NCBI GenBank assembly: GCA_049515655.1 | Contig: JBEKTW010000005.1 | Location: forward strand, 22,721-86,720 | Reading direction: 5' to 3' | Source: Bacteroidota bacterium | GTDB taxonomy: Bacteria > Bacteroidota > Ignavibacteria > UBA10030 > SZUA-254 | Length of the DNA stretch: 64,000 nucleotides | Shown: in pieces, positions 3,405 through 54,400 of the stretch | Position numbering within the stretch: position 1 is the stretch's first letter | Layout: the number at the start of each line of letters is the position of its first letter | Translations under genes and position numbers: made by a program | The notes under the pieces: model-generated | Seen by the model: the letters and a program-made list of their open reading frames with translations, nothing else | The model's database searches: none | Told to the model about the DNA's origin: nothing

Positions 3405-3723
3405 AGAGCATGGTACTTGGTTCTTGGTTCTTAGTTATTAGTTCTTGGTTATTTGTTATTTGTCATTAGTCACTGGTCATTTGTCATTGGTCATTGGTTC
3501 TTGCTTCTGGCTTCTAGCTTTTAGCTGTTGGCTTTTGGTTCTTAGTTGTCAGTTCGTTGTCATTGTTCATTAATCATTGGTCATTATTCACTACTACATA
3601 GCTACATAACTACTCAACTACCTAACTACTCCATCTCACCGCTTCACCCCATCTCCCCTTCATCATCTTAACTACTTAACTATTCAACCACCTAACCACT
3701 CAACTACCGAACTACCTAACTAC
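3405..3723 (-). repeat. copy 1 of a purine-rich, stop-codon-dense intergenic repeat family that fills the hslV-hslU gap in sense orientation
   Basis: The reverse complement of 3405-3723 aligns with 18293-18633 and partly with 48090-48346. Shared blocks are gtagttaggtagttgagtagttatgtagctatgtagtagtgaataatgaccaatgattaatgaacaa..., ctaagaaccaaaagccaacagctaaa and ggggtgaagcggtgag. The sense strand almost lacks C in one section and T in another. Confidence 0.8.
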
Positions 3724-4272
3724 TCAACTACTTATTTCCAAATCCTCCACCACAATATTCTTGTTCGTATAAATGCAAATCTCGCTCGCTGCCGCCAGTG
3801 ACTCCGCCACAATCTCCTTTGCCGAGAGGTCGGTATGCTTCACCAGCATCCGGGCGGCGGCCAGGGCATAACTGCCTCCCGAACCTATTGCGACAATACC
3901 GTCATCGGGCTCGATGACTTCACCGGTACCGGAGATGATGAGTGCTTGTTCTTTGTTGACGACCGCAAGGAGGGCTTCGAGATGCCGGAGGTATTTATCC
4001 GTGCGCCATGCCTTTGCCAGCTCGACCGCCGCGCGCAGCAGGTTACCGTGGTACTGCTGGAGGCGGTCTTCGAACCGCTCGAACAGCGTAAACGCGTCCG
4101 CAGCGGCGCCGGCAAATCCCGCGAGCACCGAATCGTTGTAGATCTTTCTGATTTTTCTGGCATGCTGCTTCATAATCGTCGTACCGACGGTGACCTGGCC
4201 GTCGCCGCCGATGACGGCATGCCCCTTGTGCCTCAACCCGAGAACGGTCGTTGAACGTATGATATTTGGCAT
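3724..4272 (-). CDS. hslV: ATP-dependent protease subunit HslV
   Basis: 182 aa. The N-terminal [23 protein letters not shown] matches the HslV Ntn-hydrolase signature. Confidence 0.95.
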
Positions 4273-18292: not shown

Positions 18293-18635
18293 GTACGTTG
18301 GTAGTTAGATAGTTGAATAGTTATGTAGCTATGTAGTAGTGAATAATGACCAATGATTAATGAACAATTACAACGAACTGACAACTAAGAACCAAAAGCC
18401 AACAGCTAAAGGCTAGAAGCCAGAAGTCAGAATCCAGAAGCAAGAAGCCAAGAGCTAATGGCCAACAGCTAAAAGCTAATAGCTCAAGGCCATAACCAGG
18501 AACAAATGACAAAGAACCAATAACTAATAAGCTAAAAGCTAAAGGCCAACAGCTAATGGCTAAAGGCTCGATGCCAGAACCAACGACGAATGACCAATGA
18601 CAAATGACTAATGACCAACAACCAACAATCAGGCA
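18293..18635 (+). repeat. copy 2 of the purine-rich intergenic repeat family, running from the stop codon to the start codon
   Basis: See copy 1. It ends ...caaccaacaatcaggcaATGacc, where the ATG is the start codon of the next gene at 18636. Confidence 0.8.
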
Positions 18636-24961: not shown

Positions 24962-25140
24962 AATCGAGACATCTGAAAAATCAAAGAGGCTTGTCATTCT
25001 GAGGATCCGCCTTTGGCGGAGACGAAGAATCTCGTTTTTTGCCTCATATTGAATAGTCAGATTCTTCGCGGAGTTTATCCTGAGCGCCAGCGAAGGACTC
25101 AGAATGACACTCTGAGTCATATTTTTCAGATGTTTCAAAT
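24962..25140 (+). mobile_element. MITE-like element with terminal inverted repeats gagacatctgaaaaa / tttttcagatgt(t)tc and inner 'gtcattctgag...ctcagaatgac' palindromes
   Basis: Terminal and nested inverted repeats are present. A related copy lies at about 50088-50290. Confidence 0.65.
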
Positions 25141-25213
25141 CAGGGATTGCCGGCTAGCCATTTGACTTTAGGAAGGAAAAGTCTTAGTATTATATGAGCT
25201 ACGAAACTTACTC

Positions 25214-42940: not shown

Positions 42941-43552
42941 ATGTCAATCCCAAACTCGCTCACAGTAATCCGCATCGTTCTCACACCGGTGTTCCTCCTC
43001 CTTCTCTTTTCAGAATCGTCACTCTGGAAACAGATCTCACTGGTTGTGTACGTCTTTGCCGCGTTGACCGACTGGTACGATGGATGGGTTGCCCGGAAAT
43101 ACGGCTACGTTTCACGGTGGGGAAGGTTTCTTGATCCTTTGGCCGACAAGATTCTCGCCGCAGCGGCTCTCTTCTCATTTGCATATTTGAACCTCGTGGC
43201 CGTATGGATGGTGTGGATCATCGTCGCGCGAGATTTCCTGATCACAGGCCTGAGAAGCTTCGCCGAGTGGAAAGACCAGCCCATCGTAACCTCCAAGACG
43301 GCACAGGCGAAAACGTTCGGTGAATTCATCGTCATCTACTACATCCTCATTCTCTATGTCGCTCAAAACGTACCCGTCGTTTATAACGATTTCAAGTCCT
43401 GGATCGATTCATTGATGCATCCCCAGGTTCTCTTTGGCATGATGCTTCTTGTGACCATATCGACCATCGGAACGGGTATTCTGTACCTGTTCGACAACAG
43501 GAAATTTCTTCGCGAAATCTATGTCCGAACTGCAGGAACAGCGAAGCAATAA
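42941..43552 (+). CDS. pgsA: CDP-diacylglycerol--glycerol-3-phosphate 3-phosphatidyltransferase
   Basis: The CDP-alcohol phosphatidyltransferase motif DGWVAR...G...LDPLADK is present. The protein is predicted to be multi-TM. Confidence 0.85.
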   Translation: MSIPNSLTVIRIVLTPVFLLLLFSESSLWKQISLVVYVFAALTDWYDGWVARKYGYVSRWGRFLDPLADKILAAAALFSFAYLNLVAVWMVWIIVARDFLITGLRSFAEWKDQPIVTSKTAQAKTFGEFIVIYYILILYVAQNVPVVYNDFKSWIDSLMHPQVLFGMMLLVTISTIGTGILYLFDNRKFLREIYVRTAGTAKQ

Positions 43553-44015
43553 CCCGCCGGTATCGTTCCCGACGCGTTTTCTCGCGACCGGTTTCTTTGC
43601 GGGCTACTCGCCTGTGATTCCCGGAACCGCCGGGAGCCTCGTCGGCCTTCTCCTCTATGCCCTTCCAGGCATGGAAAACACGCTCACCCTCGGCGCCGCC
43701 TCCCTGGTCATGCTCCTCGTCGGCACGTTCGTTTCGGCGAAAATGGAGAAACGTTACGGTGAAGATCCGTCCATCGTCGTGATCGACGAAGTTGTGGGAA
43801 TGTGGATTTCGCTTCTGACCCTCCCCAAGAATCTCGTCGTCGCCCTGATGGCATTTGTCTGGTTCCGCGTGTACGATACGATCAAACCCTCACCAGCCCG
43901 GCAACTCGAACGATTGCAGCACGGATGGGGAATCATGCTTGATGACGTCGCGGCAGGGATCTACGCAAATGTCACCGTGAGAATCATCCTCCTCCTGTTC
44001 CCGAGAATCATTTGA
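43521..44015 (+). CDS. pgpA: phosphatidylglycerophosphatase A
   Basis: PgpA-like, with GTAGS...YDTIKP. It overlaps the end of pgsA. Confidence 0.75.
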   Translation: MSELQEQRSNNPPVSFPTRFLATGFFAGYSPVIPGTAGSLVGLLLYALPGMENTLTLGAASLVMLLVGTFVSAKMEKRYGEDPSIVVIDEVVGMWISLLTLPKNLVVALMAFVWFRVYDTIKPSPARQLERLQHGWGIMLDDVAAGIYANVTVRIILLLFPRII

Positions 44016-44055
44016 TGCCATTCAGATGAGTATCCAAGCGGGGAACTGATCGTCC

Positions 44056-45297
44056 ATGCGAGCTGAGATCATTGCAATTGGCGACGAGCTGCTCATCGGG
44101 CAGGTCGTCAACACCAACGCTGCGTTCATAGCACAACAACTGAATGCTGTGGGGATAGCCATCCTCCGGACGACTACGGTCGGCGACGATGAAGACGAAA
44201 TCCTGAAAGCGTTTCAAGGGAGCATCGAAAATGCCGACATCACAATCGTCACCGGCGGACTAGGCCCCACCCACGACGACATCACCAAGAAAACCATCTG
44301 CGGATTCTTCGAAACCGACCTGACAATGAATCAGGAAGTACTTCTCAATATCAGGGAACTGCTGCAACGCCGCAACGTCCTTCCGACGAAAATGGTGGAA
44401 GAGCAGGCTCTCGTTCCCCGCATTGCTTCCGTCATTCGTAACGAACTCGGGACGGCACCCGGGCTGTTCATCGAGCAGAATCACAGGTATTTTTTTGCCC
44501 TCCCCGGCGTCCCTCACGAAATGGAGCGCATGGTCGACAATTTCATTGTTCCATTGCTCCGGTCGAAGCGAAGCGGCCTGGCAATTCTCCACCGCACTCT
44601 CAGCACGACAGGCATTCCCGAATCGGCCCTGGCGGAGAAGTTGGGAGATCTTGCGGCGCTTCTCGGCAACGCAAAGCTCGCATTTCTTCCATCCACCTCC
44701 GGGGTGCGTCTGCGCATCACCGTTGTGGACAAGCACGAACGCGCTGCCGCGGAACTGATCGATGAGGTAGAATCGCGCATCCGGACAAAGGTTGGGAAGT
44801 ACATCTATGGCGTTGACGATGAAACGCTCGAACAATGCATCGGCGCCATCCTCGTCGCACGTCATCTTCGACTGGCGGTCGCCGAGTCATGTACAGGAGG
44901 ACTTATTGCTCACCGGTTGACGAACGTTTCCGGAAGTTCACGATATTTCGACCGTGCTGTTATTGCGTACAGCAATCAAGCGAAGGTCGACAATTTGAAT
45001 GTTCCCCCGGAATCCATCGAAGCCCATGGGGCCGTCAGCAAGGAGGTAGCCGAGGCAATGGCTTCTGGAATCCGGCAGGTTGCCCGCACCGACATTGGCA
45101 TATCCACCACCGGGATCGCCGGGCCCACCGGAGGGACACCGGAGAAACCGGTCGGGCTTGCCTGGATCGGTTATTCCGACCGGCAGGAGACGATGGCCAT
45201 AAAATGTCAGTTTGGTTATGGCCGCCTTCAAATTAAAGAACGAACGGCCCAAGCCGCCCTGGATCTCATCAGGAGAAAACTCCTTCAACTGGTTTAG
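44056..45297 (+). CDS. cinA: competence/damage-inducible protein CinA (MoCF-binding domain plus nicotinamide-nucleotide amidohydrolase domain)
   Basis: MRAEIIAIGDELLIGQVVNTNAAFI, and the C-terminal CinA domain AESCTGGL. Confidence 0.9.
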   Translation: MRAEIIAIGDELLIGQVVNTNAAFIAQQLNAVGIAILRTTTVGDDEDEILKAFQGSIENADITIVTGGLGPTHDDITKKTICGFFETDLTMNQEVLLNIRELLQRRNVLPTKMVEEQALVPRIASVIRNELGTAPGLFIEQNHRYFFALPGVPHEMERMVDNFIVPLLRSKRSGLAILHRTLSTTGIPESALAEKLGDLAALLGNAKLAFLPSTSGVRLRITVVDKHERAAAELIDEVESRIRTKVGKYIYGVDDETLEQCIGAILVARHLRLAVAESCTGGLIAHRLTNVSGSSRYFDRAVIAYSNQAKVDNLNVPPESIEAHGAVSKEVAEAMASGIRQVARTDIGISTTGIAGPTGGTPEKPVGLAWIGYSDRQETMAIKCQFGYGRLQIKERTAQAALDLIRRKLLQLV

Positions 45298-45305
45298 AAC
45301 CTCCT

Positions 45306-45872
45306 ATGCCTTCGATTCGCACATTTATCGCCATTGAAACACCCGGACCGATTCGGAAGGACATCCTCAGTCTCCAGGATCGGCTTAAGCGGTCGGGCGC
45401 GGATGTCCGCTGGGAACCTGAAGACAAATTCCACGCGACGGTAAAATTCTTGGGGGATGTCGATGAAACCGCTTTGCCAGGCATTCTCACGAAAATCGAG
45501 ACAGTTGTCGTCCAGCATCGCGCGTGTGAAGTTATTTTTGAGAAGCTGGGATGCTTTCCAGACAATAAGCGCCCGCGCGTGGTGTGGGTCGGATGCTCGA
45601 ATCCCGACGGCAAACTCGAAGCACTCAAGTCAATGCTGGACAACGAGTTGCGAGTATTCGGCTTTGAGATCGAGTCACGTCCATTCCGGCCGCATATCAC
45701 TCTGGGTCGCATCAAGAGCCAAAATGGAATTGAACACTTGATTTCAATACTAGAAAACCTTACCTTTGAACCGCACGCCTCGGTCGTGAACAAGATTTTC
45801 GTCATGAAGAGCATGCTGAAACCCAAAGGGTCGGAGTACTCCGTCCTGCAAACAATTCAATTAAACCGTTAG
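45306..45872 (+). CDS. thpR: RNA 2',3'-cyclic phosphodiesterase (2H phosphoesterase family, LigT/ThpR)
   Basis: Two H-x-T/S-x motifs are present (HATVKFLG and HITLGRI). Confidence 0.8.
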   Translation: MPSIRTFIAIETPGPIRKDILSLQDRLKRSGADVRWEPEDKFHATVKFLGDVDETALPGILTKIETVVVQHRACEVIFEKLGCFPDNKRPRVVWVGCSNPDGKLEALKSMLDNELRVFGFEIESRPFRPHITLGRIKSQNGIEHLISILENLTFEPHASVVNKIFVMKSMLKPKGSEYSVLQTIQLNR

Positions 45873-45885
45873 TTAGGATATTTCC

Positions 45886-46290
45886 TTGAAATCCCCGAAG
45901 AAAACAAAATCGGAGAGCAAAACAGTTTTGTTGATCGACGACGAGCGCGATTGGTTGTCCTCGATGTCGGAGGCGCTCCGGAAAGAGCCGTACAGATTGG
46001 TGATTGCGGACAGCGGTGAATCAGCGCTGAAGAAGCTGAAGGAGATCAAACCGGATTTGATCCTGAGTGATGTCCGGATGCCTGTTATGAACGGTTTCGA
46101 CCTCTACGAACGGGTGCGGCGAGACCCGAAGTTAAAGCTCATTCCATATGTGTTCATGTCATCGATTGACGATTATGACGCCATCCATGTCGCCAAGGAA
46201 CTCGGCGCGGACGACTATGTCACGAAACCGTTTGACGATGAAGACGCTAAGAATATCGTTTCAAACCTGTTAACTCGTTTTAGTAAATAA
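45886..46290 (+). CDS. stand-alone response-regulator receiver domain protein (CheY-like)
   Basis: LLIDDE...[17 protein letters not shown]...K carries the conserved receiver-domain Asp and Lys. 134 aa. Confidence 0.8.
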
Positions 46291-46306
46291 TAAGGGAGGT
46301 AACGTT

Positions 46307-47392
46307 ATGCCAGTAGAATCGAACAAAGAATCGCGTTTGCAGGCACTGCGCATTGCAGTGGAGCAAATCGAAAAGCAGCACGGTAAAGGAGCCATCATGC
46401 GATTGAGCGAGGGTCCGATCGCAAAAATCGACTTCATTTCAACCGGCGCAATTTCACTTGACGCCGCGGTCGGCATTGGCGGCATTCCGCGCGGACGTGT
46501 CACGGAGATTTTCGGGCCGGAATCGTCCGGCAAGACAACCATCTGTCTGCACGTCATCGCCGAAGCGCAGAAAAAGGACGGCATCGCCGCATTCATCGAC
46601 ACCGAACATGCACTCGACATTGCCTATGCAAAGAGATTGGGGGTCGATGTCAACAACTTGCTTCTCTCCCAGCCGGAATTCGGCGAACAGGCGCTCGAGA
46701 TCGTGGAAACGCTCGTTCGCAGCGGGGCGCTGGATGTCATCGTCATCGATTCGGTTGCCGCGTTGACACCGCGCGCCGAAATCGAAGGCGAAATGGGCGA
46801 CCCGTCGATGGGCGTCCAGGCACGATTGATGTCCCAGGCACTCCGGAAACTGACCGCCGCGATCAGCAAGTCGAAAACGAGCGTCATGTTCACGAACCAA
46901 TTGCGGCAAAAAATCGGCGTCATGTTTGGAAATCCCGAGACGACAACCGGCGGCAACGCATTGAAGTTCTATGCTTCCGTCCGCCTCGACGTCCGGCGTA
47001 TCGAAGCGCTGAAAGACGGGCAGAGCGTTGTTGGAAATCGCGTCAGGGTGAAGGTGGTCAAGAATAAGGTGGCCCCACCCTTCAAAGAGGCGCAATTCGA
47101 CGTGCTGTATAATGAAGGCATCTCAAAAATTGGAGACCTCATCGACGTCGCCGTCGAACAAAACGTCATCACAAAGAGCGGCTCGTGGTTCGCCTACAAA
47201 GACGAGCGCATCGGCCAGGGACGTGATGCGGTAAAGAAATATCTGCAGGAGAACGCCAAGCTTGCCAGTGAAATCGACGTGATTATCCGGAAAAAACTTG
47301 GACTCATCGAAGATGCCGTCCAGGAAAAAGAAGGAAAGGCAGCCCCGCCGAAACCGGAGGTACAAGCCGTAAAGAAACCGGTCAAGGCGTAG
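46307..47392 (+). CDS. recA: recombinase RecA
   Basis: Canonical RecA over its full length ([16 protein letters not shown]). Confidence 0.97.
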
Positions 47393-47411
47393 CCGCCACC
47401 GTGCCGCTCTC

Positions 47412-48089
47412 ATGGTCGTTACGAACATCGAACGCCAGAAGCGCCGTCCAAAGAGAGTGAATGTTTACATCGACGGCGAATTTGCCGTCGGACTGCACGA
47501 AGATGTACTCTTTAAGTTCGGTTTACGCAAGGGAGACAACGTCGACCGCGAAACCCTGGTCAGCATCGAATCAGCGGAGGAATCCCATTTTGCAAAAGAA
47601 AAAGCTCTGAGGTTCATCGGGTATCGCTCCCGCAGCGAGAAAGAGCTGCGCTCGAAGCTTCGTGAAAAGCAATTTCACCCGCAGGTAATCGAAGATACCG
47701 TCCGTTATCTCAGGGAAAATCGTTTTCTCGACGATGAGGCATTCGCCCGTTCGTTCGTGAAGGACGCACTCCTGCGAAAACCCACGGGACGGCTTCTCCT
47801 GCGACGGCAGCTTCGTCTAAAAGGCATTGACACCGGGATAATCGAGGAGGTACTCGACGAGCTTGTTCCACAGCACGATGAAGACACGCTTGCGATCGAG
47901 GCGGCATCGACTCTTCTGAAGCGGTTCCGGGCGTCACGAAAGAAAATTGACCGGGAGAAACAACGCGCGCGCCTTGCGAGTTTGCTTGCGCGAAGAGGAT
48001 TCGGATGGCCAACCATCCATGCCGTCCTGAGAAGAGTTCTTAAACCCGGTGCCCAGACCTCCGACGAGGATGAAGGGGTGAATCGGTGA
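47412..48089 (+). CDS. recX: regulatory protein RecX
   Basis: A helical-repeat protein lying immediately downstream of recA. 225 aa. Confidence 0.8.
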   Translation: MVVTNIERQKRRPKRVNVYIDGEFAVGLHEDVLFKFGLRKGDNVDRETLVSIESAEESHFAKEKALRFIGYRSRSEKELRSKLREKQFHPQVIEDTVRYLRENRFLDDEAFARSFVKDALLRKPTGRLLLRRQLRLKGIDTGIIEEVLDELVPQHDEDTLAIEAASTLLKRFRASRKKIDREKQRARLASLLARRGFGWPTIHAVLRRVLKPGAQTSDEDEGVNR

Positions 48090-48346
48090 GTGAGGGAAAC
48101 GGGGAATGGAGTAATGGATGGATGGAGTGATGGAGGATTGAGGTGATAGAGTAGTTGGGATGATGAATGGGAGAAGGGGTGAAGCGGTGAGTGGGAGAAG
48201 CCAACGGCCAAGAGCCAAGAGCTAAAGGCTAAAGGCCAATGGCTAGGAGCACGAAGCAGGATGCAAGAACCAGTGACTAATGAGCAATGACCAATGACAA
48301 AGAACTAGCAACAAAGAACCAATAACCAAGAACCAGCAACCAGGTA
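48090..48346 (+). repeat. copy 3 of the purine-rich intergenic repeat family, running from the stop codon to the start codon
   Basis: It shares ggggtgaagcggtgag, aatgaccaatgacaaaga and aaccaagaacca with copies 1 and 2. It ends 2 nt before the ATG at 48347. Confidence 0.75.
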
Positions 48347-49027
48347 TTGACGATGTCACATGTCGTTTTCGATATCGAAACCCTCGGCTTTCCCATCGAA
48401 TCGTTCGATGAGGTCCAACAGGAGTACTTGCTAAAATTCGCGGATTCGGACGAGAAGCGGGAAACGGAGATTCAGAAACTCAATTTGTATCCCCTGACCG
48501 CGCAGATCATCGCAATCGGGATGCTGAATCCCGAAACCAACGCCGGCAAAGTCTTCTACCAGGCAGATGTCTCCGAACAGTTCTCCTCCGACGACGGCAA
48601 GGTCGAATTCGTCTCGGGCGATGAACAGCAAGTCCTGAAGCTCTTCTGGGAAAGTGTCCAGCGCTACGACCAGTTTATCACGTTCAACGGCCGGTCTTTC
48701 GACTGTCCGTTTCTCATGCTGCGCTCTGCCATCGCAGGGATCAAACCGACACGCAACCTCCTTCCCTACCGGTACGACGCGGCCATCCACTGCGACCTCC
48801 TGGAACAGCTTACGTTTTACGGGGCGTTCAGGAAATTCAATCTGGACTTCTATTGCAAGGCCTTCGGGATCAAAAGTCCAAAGAGCGAGGGGATCACCGG
48901 ACTCGGCCTCGGACCACTCTTTCGCGAAGGCAAGTTCAGGGAAATTGCAAAGTACTGCCTTGGAGATATCCAGGCGACTGCTGAGTTGTTCCGGCGGTGG
49001 GAGAAGTTCCTTAATGTTAAGAATTGA
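48347..49027 (+). CDS. predicted RNase H-like 3'-5' exonuclease (related to the PolB exonuclease domain, COG3298-like)
   Basis: VVFDIETLG at the N-terminus, with further acidic motifs downstream. 226 aa. Confidence 0.65.
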   Translation: MTMSHVVFDIETLGFPIESFDEVQQEYLLKFADSDEKRETEIQKLNLYPLTAQIIAIGMLNPETNAGKVFYQADVSEQFSSDDGKVEFVSGDEQQVLKLFWESVQRYDQFITFNGRSFDCPFLMLRSAIAGIKPTRNLLPYRYDAAIHCDLLEQLTFYGAFRKFNLDFYCKAFGIKSPKSEGITGLGLGPLFREGKFREIAKYCLGDIQATAELFRRWEKFLNVKN

Positions 49028-49039
49028 ATAGCCCATCGT

Positions 49040-49140
49040 AGATCTGGGAGGTTTCAGGTTCGAGGTTTCAGGTTGCAGGTTACAGGATATAGGTGTCAGG
49101 TTGCATTGTCAGCAAAAATTTTTGCTTTTTAATTTTTAAT
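49040..49140 (+). repeat. tandem hexamer (caggtt) tract, followed by an AT-rich palindrome agcaaaaatttttgct and three copies of ttttaatt
   Basis: gtttcaggttcgaggtttcaggttgcaggttacagg...gtcaggttgc. The reverse complement resembles the aacc(a/t)g motifs of the purine-rich repeat family. Confidence 0.6.
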
Positions 49141-49172
49141 TTTTAATTATCGCATGCCATTACCGGATTGTT

Positions 49173-50000
49173 ATGGCTGATTGGCAGAGTCGACACATCG
49201 ATGAGACGGATTTCCTGGTTGTCGATGTTGAGACGACAGGGCTCTCCCCCGATACGGGCGACCGGGTGTGTGAGATTGGAGCGATCAAAATCCGCGGCGG
49301 GGCGGTGGTCGACACGCTCAGCAGTCTGGTTAATCCCTGCCGGCCCATCTCGGCAGGAGCGTACGCGGTCAACAGGATTTCTCCGGCAATGGTCGCCGAC
49401 GCCCCGGAGTTCCATCAGCTCGCAGAACGCCTGCTTCAGATGATGGACGACTCGGTACTCGTTGCGTATAATGCCCCTTTCGACGTCTCGTTTCTCGACA
49501 GTGAACTCCGCCTCGCGGGCCATCCGCGCATTCGCGCGAAGGTCGTCGACGCGCTGGCGATCGCGCGTCAGCTTCTTCCGGGAATTGGCAGATACCCTCA
49601 GGAGAACGTCGCCCAATTCCTGGGGATCCCGTTTCCCGTGAAGCACCGTGCCCTCGACGACGTGATGGTGACATCCAGAATCTTCATCTTCTTTGTCTCT
49701 ATGATGAAAGCATACGACCTTACCTCCGTCGCCGACCTCGGGCGCAGGGATCTTTCAAGCGTCATGCAGACGAAGCGTATCAGCATCGTCCAGGAGGCGA
49801 TGATCAAAGGTTCACATCTCTGGATAAAGTACCTCTCTCCTACAAACGCAGAAATTACCGACCGCATCGTTACTCCCAAAGACCTCGTCACCGAACAAAC
49901 ACCCTACCTGTTTGCATATTGTCATTCGGCAAAGGCTGAGAGAAATTTTCGGATCGATAGAATCCTGGACTTAAGGTTGGTACAAAAAGTGTCTGCCTGA
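49173..50000 (+). CDS. DnaQ-like DEDDh 3'-5' exonuclease fused to a C-terminal WYL-like domain
   Basis: Exo I FLVVDVETTGL, Exo III HRALDDV. The C-terminus WIKYLSPTNAEITDRIVTPKDLV...YLFAYCHSAKAERNFRIDRI matches the WYL-domain consensus, with the I.Y...R.V.P...YL.A.C...R.FRIDRI pattern recovered. Confidence 0.7.
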   Translation: MADWQSRHIDETDFLVVDVETTGLSPDTGDRVCEIGAIKIRGGAVVDTLSSLVNPCRPISAGAYAVNRISPAMVADAPEFHQLAERLLQMMDDSVLVAYNAPFDVSFLDSELRLAGHPRIRAKVVDALAIARQLLPGIGRYPQENVAQFLGIPFPVKHRALDDVMVTSRIFIFFVSMMKAYDLTSVADLGRRDLSSVMQTKRISIVQEAMIKGSHLWIKYLSPTNAEITDRIVTPKDLVTEQTPYLFAYCHSAKAERNFRIDRILDLRLVQKVSA

Positions 50001-50004
50001 TGGA

Positions 50005-50095
50005 ATCACCAAAACTGTCTGAACCTGGATTTTGGGGACTAAAGGATGATCACGATTTCTTGATCGCGGTAATCTCATATTCTGCAACTCGAGAC
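50005..50095 (+). repeat. partial unit of the ~107-bp tandem repeat
   Basis: ...caccaaaactgtctgaacctggattttggggactaaaggat...gcggtaatctcat corresponds to the second half of the unit. Confidence 0.6.
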
Positions 50096-50290
50096 ATCTG
50101 AATTATCGACGGATGTTGCTCATGAGAACAAGACCACACCTGTCATTCCCGCACGTTTTAAGCGGGAATCTATTTAAGATGCGCGATTCAAGTCCCGCCT
50201 TTTGGATTCCGCTTACGTAGGCGGGATTCTGAAAAGCGGAACATTCGGGCATGACAGGCTTTTTGATTTTTCAGATGTCTCAAATCATGG
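50088..50290 (-). mobile_element. MITE-like element related to 24962-25140, inserted into the tandem array
   Basis: Ends gagacatctgaa... and ...tttttcagatgtctc. Inner palindromes: gtcattcccgcacgttttaagcgggaatc and ggcatgacagg. Confidence 0.6.
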
Positions 50291-50385
50291 TTCAGACAAC
50301 GGTGGCATCATCAAAACTGTCTGAACCTTGATTTTGGGGATTATAGGATTTCCTTGATAGTTTAATAAGAGCAATCTCATAAGCT
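50281..50385 (+). repeat. full unit of the ~107-bp tandem repeat
   Basis: Contains the 10-bp hairpin ggttcagaca-N20-tgtctgaacc. Confidence 0.7.
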
Positions 50386-50514
50386 TCCTTCGGGTCCCGC
50401 AGAGCCAAGTGAAACGGAAAAATTGATAGAACATCAGAATATTATGAAATGACAAAGCCCGATTCTCTTGTTCCAAATTAGCGAATTGAACGATCCATTC
50501 TTCTCATCAGAGGA

Positions 50515-51030
50515 TTGAAAATCATGCTTGATAGAGACCTCGCCGAACTCTACGGAGTTCAAACGCGAGATCTTAATAAGGCAGTACGACGAAATAGCGA
50601 TCGTTTTCCATCTGATTTTATGTTCCAGCTCACTCCCGAGGAATATAAAAACTTGATGTTCCAATTTGGAACATCAAGATGGGGCGGCACAAGGAAGCTT
50701 CCCTACGCTTTTACAGAGTTAGGCGTAGCGATGCTCTCCAGTGTATTGAACAGCGAGCGAGCCGTCCGCGTAAACATACAGATTATGCGTGCATTTGTGG
50801 CACTTCGGGAGATCCTTGCTACCCACAAAGACCTTGCCCGAAAATTAGAAGAAATGGAAAAGAAATACGATCAGCAGTTCAAAGTGGTGTTCGAGGCAAT
50901 GCGGCGACTAATAATTGCTTCTGGCAGTGCGCAAGACAAGCCAAAACGCGAAATTGGATTTAAAGTTGGAGAACCAAATGTTCTCTATACACCTCGAAAA
51001 AAAGACAAAGTGATGAGAAGGAAATATTAA
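50515..51030 (+). CDS. ORF6N-domain (KilA-N-like) DNA-binding protein of the kind common on mobile elements
   Basis: The N-terminal [39 protein letters not shown] matches the ORF6N consensus. 171 aa. Confidence 0.75.
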
Positions 51031-51064
51031 TGACCGAAGAATTTAAACAAATGGTAATCTTATA

Positions 51065-51440
51065 ATCATGCGAATCATGGTTCGAACAACGGCGGCATCA
51101 CCGAAACCGTCTGAACCTTGATTTTGGGGATTATAGGATTTCCATGATTGTTTAATCGCGGTAGTCTCACGATCATGCGAATCATGGTTCAGACAACGAC
51201 GGTATCACTGAAACTGTCTGAACCTTGATTTTGAGGATTATAGGATTTCCATGATTGTTTAATCACGGTAATTTCATAATTATGTGAATCACGGTGCAGA
51301 CAACGACAGTATAACCGAGACTGTCTGAACCTTGATTTTGGGGATTAAAGGATGACCATGATTTTGTAATCAAGGTAATCTTATAATCATGCGAATCACG
51401 GTTCAGACAATGGATCCCGCTTGCTTCCCTCCTCACAACT
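51065..51440 (+). repeat. three and a half tandem copies of the ~107-bp hairpin repeat, immediately upstream of (and overlapping) the 5' end of the next gene
   Basis: Unit starts fall at about 51065, 51172, 51280 and 51386, a period of 106-108 bp. Each unit contains ggttcagaca...tgtctgaacc, gattttggggattataggatttccatgattgtttaatc and cggtaatct. Confidence 0.85.
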
Positions 51441-51484
51441 CAGTATCTTGTTGCCTGTTCTACCACACTTACAAAGGAACTGCC

Positions 51485-54400
51485 ATGAACCGTAACCGCT
51501 ATTTCGCTTTGCTTCTGAGTATTCTGTTTTCTGTCGGAATGCTCCTCGCCCAACCCACGAAGTCGGATTCCCCGGCTCCCAAAGATACGGCCAAAAAATC
51601 GGACACCAAATGGGACGTTTCTGCCAAGCATGGTCCTTCTCAGGACATTGAGTTCGAAACGGACGAGGGGACGTGGATCTCAGTCGATGTCAGCCCTGAC
51701 GGCAAACACATAGTCTTCGACCTCCTCGGCGATATCTATATCATGCCCATCAGCGGCGGCGACGCGAAGCTGCTCTGCGGAGGACCGGCGTACGAAGTGG
51801 AGCCAAGGTTTAGCCCGGACGGGAAGAAAATTTCATTCACCAGCGACCGCGATGGCTGCAATAACATCTGGATGATGGATGCCGACGGAAAGAATCCAAA
51901 GCAGCTCACTCATGAAAAAGAGCGCCAGACAAACAACGCGGTCTGGTCGCCGGATGGTCAGTTCATCGTCGCGCGGAAGCACTACCGCAACGAACGCTCG
52001 CTCGGCGCGGGCGAAATGTGGATGTATCACATCGGCGGCGGCGACGGCCTGCAGCTCACGAAACGCCGCAACTGGGAACAGGATGCTGGCGAACCATGCC
52101 TCTCGCCCGACGGCCGTTACCTCTATTACAGCGAAGATGTGAGTCCCGGCGGCGGTTTTCAGTACAACAAGGATCCGAACGGAACAATTTACGTCATACA
52201 GCGACTCGACATCCAGACCGGAAAAACGGAACAGTTCATTCACACTGAGGGCGGCGCCGTGCGCCCCCAGGTTTCACCCGACGGAAAAACGATCGCTTTC
52301 GTCAAACGCGTCCGTCTTAAGACAGTCCTTTACACGTTTGATGTCGAGAGCGGCAAAGAGACGCCGGTCTACGACAATCTCAGCCGTGACGCCCAGGAAA
52401 CCTGGGCGATGTTCGGCGTCCATCCGGGCTTTTCCTGGATGCCGGACGGGAAGCGCATCGTCATCTCAGCCAAAGGTCACATCTGGATAATCGATGTGCG
52501 CACGAAGGAAGCGACGCAAATTTCTTTCAAAGTGCACGTCAGGCAGACGATCACCAACGCAGTCCGTTTTCCCCAGGAAGTTGCGCCGGAAAAATTCGAC
52601 GTCAAAATGCTTCGCTGGGTGACCGTTTCCCCCGACCAGAAATCCGTCATCTATAATGCTCTCGGCAAATTATGGATACGATCCCTCCCGCAGGGAACTC
52701 CGAAGCGCCTCACCAACGATGAAAAACGATTTGAACTATTTCCTGCGTTCTCGGCTGACGGGAAATGGATTGTGTACGCGACGTGGAACGACGACGAGCA
52801 GGGTTCTCTCTGGAAGGTCAGAGCTGACGGGTCATCCCAAACGAAACTGACTGTCCGCAAAGGACATTACGTCGAACCGGCATTCTCACGCGACGGATCA
52901 AGAATCGTTTTCAAGAGGATAGGCGGAGATAATCTCCGCGGCGACGAATACACGCACGAGCAAGGCATTTATTGCATGCCGGCATCGGGCGGCAAAGCAA
53001 CTCTCATTACGGAAGAAGGCTCGCGGCCTATGTTCAACAAAAACGGGGACAGGATTTTTCTCCTTTCCGGTGAGGGCGATAAGACCGCTTTTGTCAGTGT
53101 CGGGCTCAGCGGCGAGCAACGGCGTGTTCACCTTCTCTCCGACAACGCCGAAGAAATCGTCCCGTCGCCCGATGAGCAATGGGTCGCATTCGTTGAGCGA
53201 TTCAACGCCTACATCGCAGTCTTTCCCAAAACCGGACAGGCGGTCATGATCGGTCCGGGCACGTCGGATTACCCGGTCAAACGGGTGACCCGGGACGCCG
53301 GAACGTACCTCCACTGGTCGCCCGACAGTAAGGCGCTTCACTGGTCGCTCGGACCGGAACTGTATTCCCGCGACCTGACGAACACGTTCAAATTCGTCGA
53401 TGGAGCTCCCGATAGCGTTCAGGAAAAACCGGATACAACAGGACTCAACATCAGTTTTTCGGCATTGACCGACAACCCCACCGGACCCGTCGCCCTCGTC
53501 GGAGCCACCCTGATTACGATGAAAGGCGATGAGGTCATTCCGGATGCGACGATTCTCATTGAGCGAAACCGCATCAAAGCCGTCGGACCGTCTGCGAGCG
53601 TACAGGTTCCCGCGAACGCCTACAAACTCGACGTAAGAGGGAAGTACATCATGCCGGGGATCATCGACGTCCACGCGCACATTCCCACCGGAAGCAGCAA
53701 CATCGTTCCCCAGACCCATTGGCCGTATTACGTCAACCTCGCGTTTGGCGTTACGACAGCGCACGACCCTTCGTCTGGCACCGAAATGGTCTTTTCAAAC
53801 TCCGAGCTGCTGAAAGCCGGAATCCTCGTGGGACCGCGACTCTATTCAACCGGCACGATTCTGTACGGCGCCGAAGCGCCGTTCAAGGCGATCATCAACA
53901 ACTTCGACGATGCGATGTCTCACCTGCGACGCATGAAGGCGGTCGGAGCGTTCTCCGTAAAAAGCTATAACCAGCCGCGGCGCGATGAACGCCAGCAAAT
54001 CATTGAAGCGGCCCGTGACCTCAAAATGATGGTCGTGCCCGAAGGCGGCTCGACATTCTTCTGGAACGTCTCGATGATTCTGGACGGCCATACGGGGATC
54101 GAGCATTCACTTCCGGTCTCTCCTCTTTACAAGGACGTGCTCACGCTCTTCGGCAAGAGCCAGACCGGTTACACTCCGACTTTGATCGTAAGCTATGGCG
54201 GATTGTGGGGAGAGAACTACTGGTTCATGAAGACGAAAGTCTGGGAAAACGAACGTTTACTCAAATTTACTCCGCGGGAAATAATCGATGCGCGATCCCG
54301 CCGCCGGTTGATGGCAGAGGAAGACGACTTCAACTACATCGACAACGCGCGCGCCGTAAAAGCGGCCCTGGACGCCGGCACGAAGGTTCAGCTCGGCGCA

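Follow-up and report, generated by a model that had tools for sequence, protein, structure and literature searches.

The WYL-domain sensors of single-stranded DNA (ssDNA) or DNA damage that have been studied so far are almost all transcription factors. Binding of ssDNA by WYL domains has been described for the regulators DriD (PMC9186387), CapW (PMC11662680) and PafBC (PMC11804915) and for the helicase Pif1 (bioRxiv 10.1101/163188), the only studied fusion of this domain to a DNA enzyme that we found. The Pif1 of Thermotoga elfii (TePif1) uses its WYL domain as an accessory module for ssDNA binding, required both for high-affinity binding and for the coupling between ATPase activity and unwinding (bioRxiv 10.1101/163188; PMC9964779). 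This report deals with two adjacent genes in a 64,000-nucleotide stretch of DNA from a Bacteroidota bacterium (GTDB lineage Ignavibacteria; assembly GCA_049515655.1, contig JBEKTW010000005.1, positions 22,721 to 86,720), hereafter the window. One of them, DnaQ-WYL, encodes a WYL domain fused straight to a nuclease, and the other, Exo2, encodes a stand-alone PolB-type exonuclease. In Ignavibacteriota both are found beside recA-recX, and the reading we favour, to which we give a probability of roughly 60%, is that they are chromosomal housekeeping accessories of a recA-recX repair operon, with the WYL domain serving as an ssDNA module. The locus is a lead to uncharacterised accessory exonucleases of recombination in a phylum that has received little study, among them the orphan family PF10108 to which Exo2 belongs, and DnaQ-WYL is a simple test case for the tethering or gating of an enzyme on ssDNA by a WYL domain.

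Pif1-WYL proteins, represented by TePif1 and by the Deferribacter DdPif1 (8BNV/8BNS), likewise consist of a DNA-processing enzyme with a single C-terminal WYL domain and neither helix-turn-helix (HTH) nor WCX domains, but there the partner is a superfamily 1 helicase, whereas in DnaQ-WYL it is a predicted DEDDh exonuclease. The ssDNA-sensing regulators PafBC, DriD, CapW and BrxR, built as winged HTH-WYL-WCX proteins, have the WYL motifs and the ssDNA-binding arginines in common with DnaQ-WYL and are also tied to the DNA-damage response and the recA regulon. They are, however, transcription factors, whereas DnaQ-WYL would act as a nuclease on the very strand that it binds. On the catalytic side, the nearest relatives in sequence and structure are the exonuclease domains found in PolC and in DinG of Bacillus/Staphylococcus, which are embedded in a polymerase or sit on a helicase-like body, in contrast to a 275-residue protein with a WYL domain. 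The DEDDh fold is also common to E. coli ExoX and ExoI (SbcB; Foldseek matches to 4fzx, 2.4e-11, and 3c95, 1.9e-9, respectively), for which the role is the same as the one proposed here, trimming of 3′ ssDNA beside RecA function. ExoI carries a small β-barrel (SH3-like) domain that helps to hold ssDNA, whereas the accessory domain of DnaQ-WYL is WYL, and no such operon linkage to recA-recX is seen in E. coli. The CRISPR-associated Cas2-DEDDh and WYL1 proteins use the same two domain families, but with the WYL domain on a separate accessory protein, while DnaQ-WYL is a direct fusion found with no cas genes or CRISPR array. Exo2, finally, is a clear member, with intact DEDDy motifs, of the stand-alone PolB-like exonucleases PF10108/COG3298, an uncharacterised family for which the literature search returned a catalogue mention only, in a survey of the RNase H-like superfamily (PMC3985635).

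The DnaQ-WYL architecture is already visible in databases, the proteins being named at NCBI as 'WYL domain-containing' or 'exonuclease domain-containing' protein, and the combination of a DEDDh exonuclease with a Pif1-like WYL domain is no surprise for a specialist. A '3′->5′ exoRNase'-WYL fusion was mentioned in passing by Makarova et al. in 2014 (PMC4012209), and no exonuclease-WYL entry was found in the supplements of that work. The linkage of Exo2 and DnaQ-WYL to recA-recX was not found described in the literature, for the PF10108 family either.

An earlier note, made from the sequence alone, had called two neighbouring exonuclease reading frames at this place, the first PolB-exo-like and the second DnaQ-type DEDDh with a C-terminal WYL domain. 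Both frames are real and lie on the plus strand, and all of these calls were borne out. DnaQ-WYL matches the Pfam family RNase_T (PF00929; domain limits and E-value in Table 1) with 109.6 bits against a cut-off of 24, and its catalytic residues are all present: D18 and E20 in the D-x-E motif, D104 in Exo II, and H158 and D163 in the H-x4-D motif. Each of them is kept in 97 or 98 of 98 sequences at 28-44% identity. In profile comparisons with solved structures, the exonuclease domain was closest to that of T. maritima PolC (2p1j, 3.8e-40), followed by a further PolC match, S. aureus DinG (8zef, 4.4e-29), E. coli epsilon (3e-23) and ExoX (4e-15). Cas2-DEDDh (8fy9) scored 5.9e-12, and RNase T far weaker, 1.7e-4. 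Foldseek gave PolC and DinG exonuclease domains at ranks 1-5. The only NCBIfam model passed was the generic dnaQ-domain model TIGR00573 (98.8 vs a cut-off of 71.5). The protein stayed below the epsilon equivalogs TIGR01406 (100.1 vs 222.7) and PRK05711 (94.8 vs 196), below a further epsilon equivalog of the TIGR01406/PRK05711/PRK06310 set (85.5 vs 236) and below the ExoX model PRK07983 (66 bits, cut-off 202), so that it is no ExoX orthologue, and no cut-off of the other named-exonuclease equivalogs in NCBIfam was reached. Altogether, the sequence comparisons place the predicted nuclease as a DEDDh enzyme of the PolC/DinG/epsilon branch. The AlphaFold2 (AF2) model is confident and compact, with a predicted local distance difference test (pLDDT) of 94.3 and a predicted template modelling score (pTM) of 0.90, and shows the exonuclease domain and a five-stranded barrel connected through a helical linker.

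This C-terminal part matches PF13280 above the cut-off (E 2.7e-13, 50.1 bits vs 21.8) over profile positions 4-69 of 70, and the same match is precomputed for most DnaQ-WYL homologues; the stretch YLFAYCHSAKAERNFRIDRI, quoted in the earlier note for its likeness to the WYL consensus, corresponds to residues 245-264. Pfam finds no HTH or WCX domain in the protein, which ends 7 residues past the WYL domain, and DnaQ-WYL is therefore no regulator of the PafBC/CapW type. For the WYL region (residues ~202-278), the best solved match by profile was the C-terminal WYL domain of DdPif1 (8bnv, 2e-9), followed by PafBC (6sj9, 1.7e-6) and then PafC and BrxR, and in a single-sequence search PafBC came out best (8.5e-8), with a common block AYCHS...RNFRxDR. 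Counted along the alignment, R260 and R263 correspond to R201 and R204 of PafC, whose mutation together with the PafB pair abolished ssDNA binding and transcription activation (PMC11804915). In CapW, an equivalent set of serine and arginines holds three ssDNA nucleotides (PMC11662680), and the residues of this type of ligand site, S222 and R257, are also found in DnaQ-WYL. Conservation in the family (n=98, including 97 distant members) is high for Y220 (96), C250 (95), F259 (95) and R257 (91), and amounts to 77 for R263 and 72 for R260. The WYL tripeptide itself is here P244-Y245-L246; across the family the tryptophan position is variable and the tyrosine and leucine are mostly retained. Taken together, the analysis suggests that the most likely WYL ligand is not a second messenger of defence but ssDNA, as in PafBC, DriD, CapW and Pif1.

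For Exo2, an ATG start at 48353, favoured by the gene callers and by the starts of homologues, gives a protein of 224 residues. It matches DNA_pol_B_exo2 (PF10108; E 2.1e-18, 67.2 bits, cut-off 24) and also PF13482. The DEDDy motifs FDIET (D7, E9), FNGRSFD (D117) and YCLGD (Y201, D205) are complete, and these five residues are invariant among 43 homologues; like DnaQ-WYL, Exo2 is thus a predicted 3′-5′ exonuclease with intact catalytic residues. Its AF2 model (pLDDT 93.2) is matched by Foldseek to the exonuclease domains of archaeal PolB and of Pol epsilon with E ~1e-8, and no characterised stand-alone relative was found in the Protein Data Bank.

The setting of the two genes was compared in a scan of one genome per species, which gave 27 Ignavibacteriota-type genomes with a full-length DnaQ-WYL (loci L001-L027), their records being labelled Bacteroidota, Ignavibacteria or, wrongly, 'Chlorobiaceae'. 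On contigs of sufficient reach, the gene order is pgpA-cinA-thpR-receiver-recA-recX-Exo2-DnaQ/WYL. Exo2 is present at 26 of the 27 species loci, and in 26 of the 27 the series recA-recX-Exo2-DnaQ/WYL is kept in the same order, so that the conserved pairing for which the earlier note wanted homologue neighbourhoods to be checked does exist, albeit next to recA-recX, without defence context and not as an obligate pair. The junctions in the relatives are tight, mostly -20 to +12 nt between recX and Exo2 and 2 to 36 nt between Exo2 and DnaQ/WYL, with overlaps of 20 nt and 4 nt, respectively, in L086. Downstream of DnaQ/WYL the loci differ, with bioY, histidine kinases or a methyltransferase in that place. 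A more distant genome of the Ignavibacteriales again has Exo2 and DnaQ/WYL adjacent (14-nt overlap) within the recA cluster, with two AI-2E transporter genes inserted between recX and the pair. On the other hand, L084 has DnaQ/WYL directly after recX without Exo2, and L171 has the order recA-recX-transporters-Exo2-prs without DnaQ/WYL. Each gene thus occurs in the recA cluster without the other, which means that both are individually tied to recA-recX in this phylum and form no obligate pair. An obligate two-gene system was considered as well and is ruled out by these two loci and by Omnitrophota-like genomes with DnaQ-WYL alone.

Beyond the phylum, a profile of the family was searched against 1.84 billion cluster representatives and the best 150 matches were examined. 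Many of these are whole-profile matches of 265-295 residues, and at least 97 clusters (at 50% identity), with 28-44% identity to the window protein, have a significant match in the WYL region. The members with a name belong to Candidatus Omnitrophota and Ignavibacteriales, so that the family covers two phyla or more. In three Omnitrophota-like contigs, the neighbours of DnaQ-WYL are pheST, lptE, rpsT, LPG-synthase-C, a gene for a tRNA-binding protein and hypFCD, and neither Exo2 nor recA nor defence genes are found near it. Among the best 80 relatives in viral contigs none is full-length, the match being confined to the exonuclease domain in every case, and plasmids gave only matches below 60% identity, nearly all to that domain alone. 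Some members or relatives are of interest on their own. A homologue with 40% identity lies in the series mutL-sppA-DnaQ/WYL-methyltransferase (L028, 2048-7202), which gives the family a further neighbour from DNA repair, on a contig labelled 'Enterobacteriaceae' that looks mislabelled. Two long proteins, P0242 (1045 residues) and P0244 (1164 residues), with three DnaQ-like stretches each, appear among the top matches of the DnaQ-WYL profile. In a distant Ignavibacteriales locus (L088, 11905-14893), an HTH_11-WCX (WYL-type) regulator is divergent from a 164-residue RNase_T exonuclease and an AAA ATPase; this set lies some 3 kb downstream of DnaQ-WYL and may form a nuclease module of its own under WYL-type regulation.

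RecA filaments grow toward the 3′ end and are limited by RecX, and in E. coli the 3′ ssDNA exonucleases ExoI and ExoX take off 3′ tails and have an effect on both recombination and mismatch repair. The orders cinA-(ligT)-recA or pgsA-cinA-recA are, moreover, familiar from Deinococcus and Bacillus. In the light of these roles and of this order, a module of RecA, RecX and 3′-exonucleases makes a coherent repair unit. In the mechanism that we propose, Exo2 and DnaQ-WYL are probably co-expressed, and would be co-transcribed, with RecA and its inhibitor RecX. The substrate would be DNA rather than RNA, and the WYL domain would bind ssDNA 5′ of a 3′ end seated in the active site, thereby tethering or activating the nuclease on ssDNA tails, gaps or flaps. 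Both enzymes may shorten ssDNA from the 3′ end, clear away termini that are damaged or mismatched, and limit or tidy the substrates of RecA in recombination, as ExoI and ExoX do in E. coli.

Several points weigh against this proposal. The WYL motif of DnaQ-WYL does not keep the tryptophan, and WYL domains with other ligands have been reported, namely single-stranded RNA (ssRNA) for WYL1 (PMC6547453) and cyclic di-GMP (c-di-GMP) for a regulator of L. plantarum (PMC11880434). The Omnitrophota-like genes lie away from recA, which makes the recA link lineage-specific. In the window itself the junctions measure 263 nt (recX-Exo2) and 145 nt (Exo2-DnaQ/WYL), widened by repeats, so that co-transcription is not assured here. 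Finally, a literature search for WYL together with DnaQ, DEDDh or exonuclease retrieved nothing on the function of a DnaQ-WYL fusion.

A bolder reading, which we hold as tentative and rather doubtful, would make DnaQ-WYL either an ssDNA-gated exonuclease of the recA operon or the long-sought DnaE proofreader of Ignavibacteriota and Omnitrophota. In its gated form, the WYL domain would be an allosteric sensor as in PafBC, DriD and CapW, the DEDDh domain would be switched on by long ssDNA only, and DnaQ-WYL, RecX and Exo2 would work as one dedicated unit for trimming 3′ ends and limiting the filaments of RecA. As an epsilon-like replicative proofreader, DnaQ-WYL would use the WYL domain in place of the C-terminal tail of epsilon, for attachment or ssDNA handling, a role that fits a conserved core gene, apparently single-copy, in housekeeping contexts of two phyla, the score above the TIGR00573 cut-off and a weak holA-like gene nearby in one locus (L087). 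Such a role is nevertheless unlikely, given that every epsilon equivalog cut-off was missed, that no clamp- or alpha-binding tail is seen by eye and that the operon partner is recA, not dnaE or dnaN; besides, another RNase_T paralogue lies near the gene in at least one genome of the Ignavibacteriales, and the Ignavibacteriota lineage of L171 has Exo2 but no DnaQ-WYL at the locus. We also consider improbable that the protein is an RNA 3′-5′ exonuclease for end trimming or repair, acting alongside ThpR with an Sm-like WYL domain on ssRNA. The WYL fold is indeed Sm/Hfq-like, the ssRNA-binding WYL1 and the exoRNase fusion listed by Makarova et al. are precedents (PMC6547453; PMC4012209), and thpR, for an RNA 2′,3′-cyclic phosphodiesterase, is in the same cluster; against this, DNA proofreading domains match the catalytic part far better than RNase T does, the genes directly next to DnaQ-WYL are recA, recX and one for a PolB-type DNA exonuclease, and the WYL domain is closest to those of the ssDNA-binding Pif1 and PafBC.

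That the nuclease is modulated through its WYL domain is possible. The form in which the domain senses a small nucleotide, for instance a cyclic dinucleotide, and switches the enzyme on or off in a housekeeping pathway would agree with the c-di-GMP-perceiving regulator (PMC11880434) and with the fixed two-domain arrangement of the AF2 model (pTM 0.90), which is compatible with allostery, but it is very unlikely, the conserved residues being those arginines with which PafBC and CapW hold ssDNA and no cyclase or signalling gene being conserved nearby except for a generic receiver domain. The earlier note had gone further and taken the pair for a defence or mobile-element-control locus, in which a ligand-gated WYL nuclease and a partner nuclease would attack invading nucleic acid. 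To this we give hardly any credence, and synteny and context essentially exclude it. PADLOC does match CRISPR-associated WYL and DEDDh models and the candidate PDC-S48 to DnaQ-WYL, and the candidate PDC-S05 to the adjoining ORF6N gene (8e-51), and repeats and a miniature inverted-repeat transposable element (MITE)-like element flank the genes. The PADLOC matches to the nuclease, however, are to single domains, with no full-length system protein and partners; the order with recA-recX is conserved in 27 species; the genes within ~15 kb of the pair are of the housekeeping type, with neither cas nor any other defence gene among them; the guanine-plus-cytosine (GC) content of both exonuclease genes equals the average of the window and of the genome; the ORF6N gene and the repeats are limited to the window lineage and its closest relative (L020); and the best 80 viral-contig matches are without the WYL part. 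By the earlier note's own account, its proposal would be refuted if the pair were simply conserved across relatives outside any defence context, and this is what the loci show. The case also advises caution, in that WYL and DEDDh matches in defence-system libraries alone are no sign of defence.

The remaining features belong to the surroundings of the pair (Table 1), the genes of the co-directional plus-strand cluster being listed from Pfam matches and from comparison with related loci.

Table 1. Features annotated in the window, in order of position (residue numbers refer to DnaQ-WYL; TRF, Tandem Repeats Finder).
Feature	Position	Strand	Evidence and remarks
pgsA (CDP-alcohol phosphatidyltransferase), first gene of the conserved cluster	42941..43552	+	PF01066, E 4e-37
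pgpA	43521..44015	+	PF04608; syntenic in relatives whose locus reaches far enough upstream
cinA (competence/damage-inducible protein)	44056..45297	+	MoCF_biosynth, CinA_KH and CinA domains; syntenic
thpR/ligT, 2′,3′-cyclic phosphodiesterase (2′-5′ RNA ligase family)	45306..45872	+	PF02834, E 6.7e-28; syntenic
Stand-alone CheY-like receiver, immediately 5′ of recA	45886..46290	+	PF00072, E 1.8e-25
recA	46307..47392	+	RecA_N and RecA_C; 78-94% identity across loci
recX	47412..48089	+	RecX_HTH1, HTH2, HTH3
recX-Exo2 spacer, heptamer-periodic, 73% purine	48090..48352	.	TRF rows 48106-48151, 48297-48340
Exo2, stand-alone PolB-type DEDDy 3′-5′ exonuclease (predicted)	48353..49027 (alternative TTG start 48347)	+	PF10108
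Exo2-DnaQ/WYL spacer, lineage-specific	49028..49172	.	AGGTTNC heptamer tract 49048-49104, AATTTTT tract 49117-49148
DnaQ-WYL, DEDDh 3′-5′ exonuclease (predicted) with C-terminal WYL domain, 275 aa	49173..50000	+	Pfam, AF2, homologues
DEDDh exonuclease domain, residues 15-171	49215..49685	+	PF00929, E 3e-31
Helical linker between the domains, residues 172-203	49686..49781	+	AF2 helices 160-179, 186-190, 194-212
WYL domain, residues 204-268	49782..49976	+	PF13280; Y220, S222, Y245-L246, R257, R260, R263
107-bp repeat, single/partial copies	49999-50079, 50263-50406		upstream of the ORF6N gene
Nested inverted-repeat (MITE-like) element	50091-50281		outer arms GAGACATCTGAA.../...TTCAGATGTCTC, inner arms CCTGTCATTCCCGC.../...GGGCATGACAGG
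ORF6N-domain gene	50515-51030		PF10543, 1.4e-30; PADLOC candidate PDC-S05, 8e-51
107-bp repeat, 3.3 tandem copies	51053-51410		downstream of the ORF6N gene; no Rfam match

At the upstream end of the cluster, pgsA holds the same position in L084, L085 and L086. The receiver gene is found in every one of the L001-L027 loci extending that far and is missing in L171; a phospho-relay input to a recA operon would be unusual. Beyond the cluster we find tsaD, mltG/yceG and a MacAB-type ABC system upstream, and a TolB/amidohydrolase protein and starch-metabolism genes downstream. No paralogue of either exonuclease was found in the window. A scan of 43000-51500 for sigma-70 promoters and intrinsic terminators, which does not cover Bacteroidota-type promoters, did no better than on shuffled sequence. 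Rfam gave no match at the gathering threshold in the whole window, and at a permissive threshold only chance-level miRNA and snoRNA matches in 47900-51500.

The earlier note had also described three repeat families flanking the pair, with an ORF6N gene and MITEs next to it. All three families are real, although the period of the caggtt tract is 7 (AGGTTNC) and not 6, and the ORF6N gene and the MITE-like element are present, but in the window lineage and L020 only and without a role in the system. Proteins of L020 are ~90-96% identical to those of the window, and its repeats stand at the same positions: the recX-Exo2 spacer, which is lineage-specific, is kept in place only in this closest relative, the Exo2-DnaQ/WYL spacer is common only to the two, and the 107-bp unit, whose hairpin GGTTCAGACA...TGTCTGAACC folds with -34.3 kcal/mol (z -3.9), is present there too. 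Copies of this unit lie on both sides of the ORF6N gene and thus bracket it. The gene, found among the relatives only in the window lineage and L020, occupies a GC-poor stretch (0.456 vs ~0.53) and resembles a small insertion placed where the recA cluster ends. The MITE-like element folds with -79.9 kcal/mol (z -7.3), and the window contains no second full copy of it, only weak partial matches near 24966-25145. Being restricted to these two genomes, the repeats, the MITE-like element and the ORF6N gene are local additions, filler or inserted DNA at the operon end, and no part of a conserved system with the exonucleases.

The spacer upstream of Exo2 has counterparts elsewhere in the window. Similar spacers of 260-330 nt, purine/A-rich on the coding strand and heptamer-periodic, are located at 3411-3734, 18340-18618 and 48090-48352, all three between co-directional genes, ending ~6-25 nt before the next start codon and with a mutual local similarity of 72-87%. 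They might act as leaders or translation enhancers or be products of slippage.

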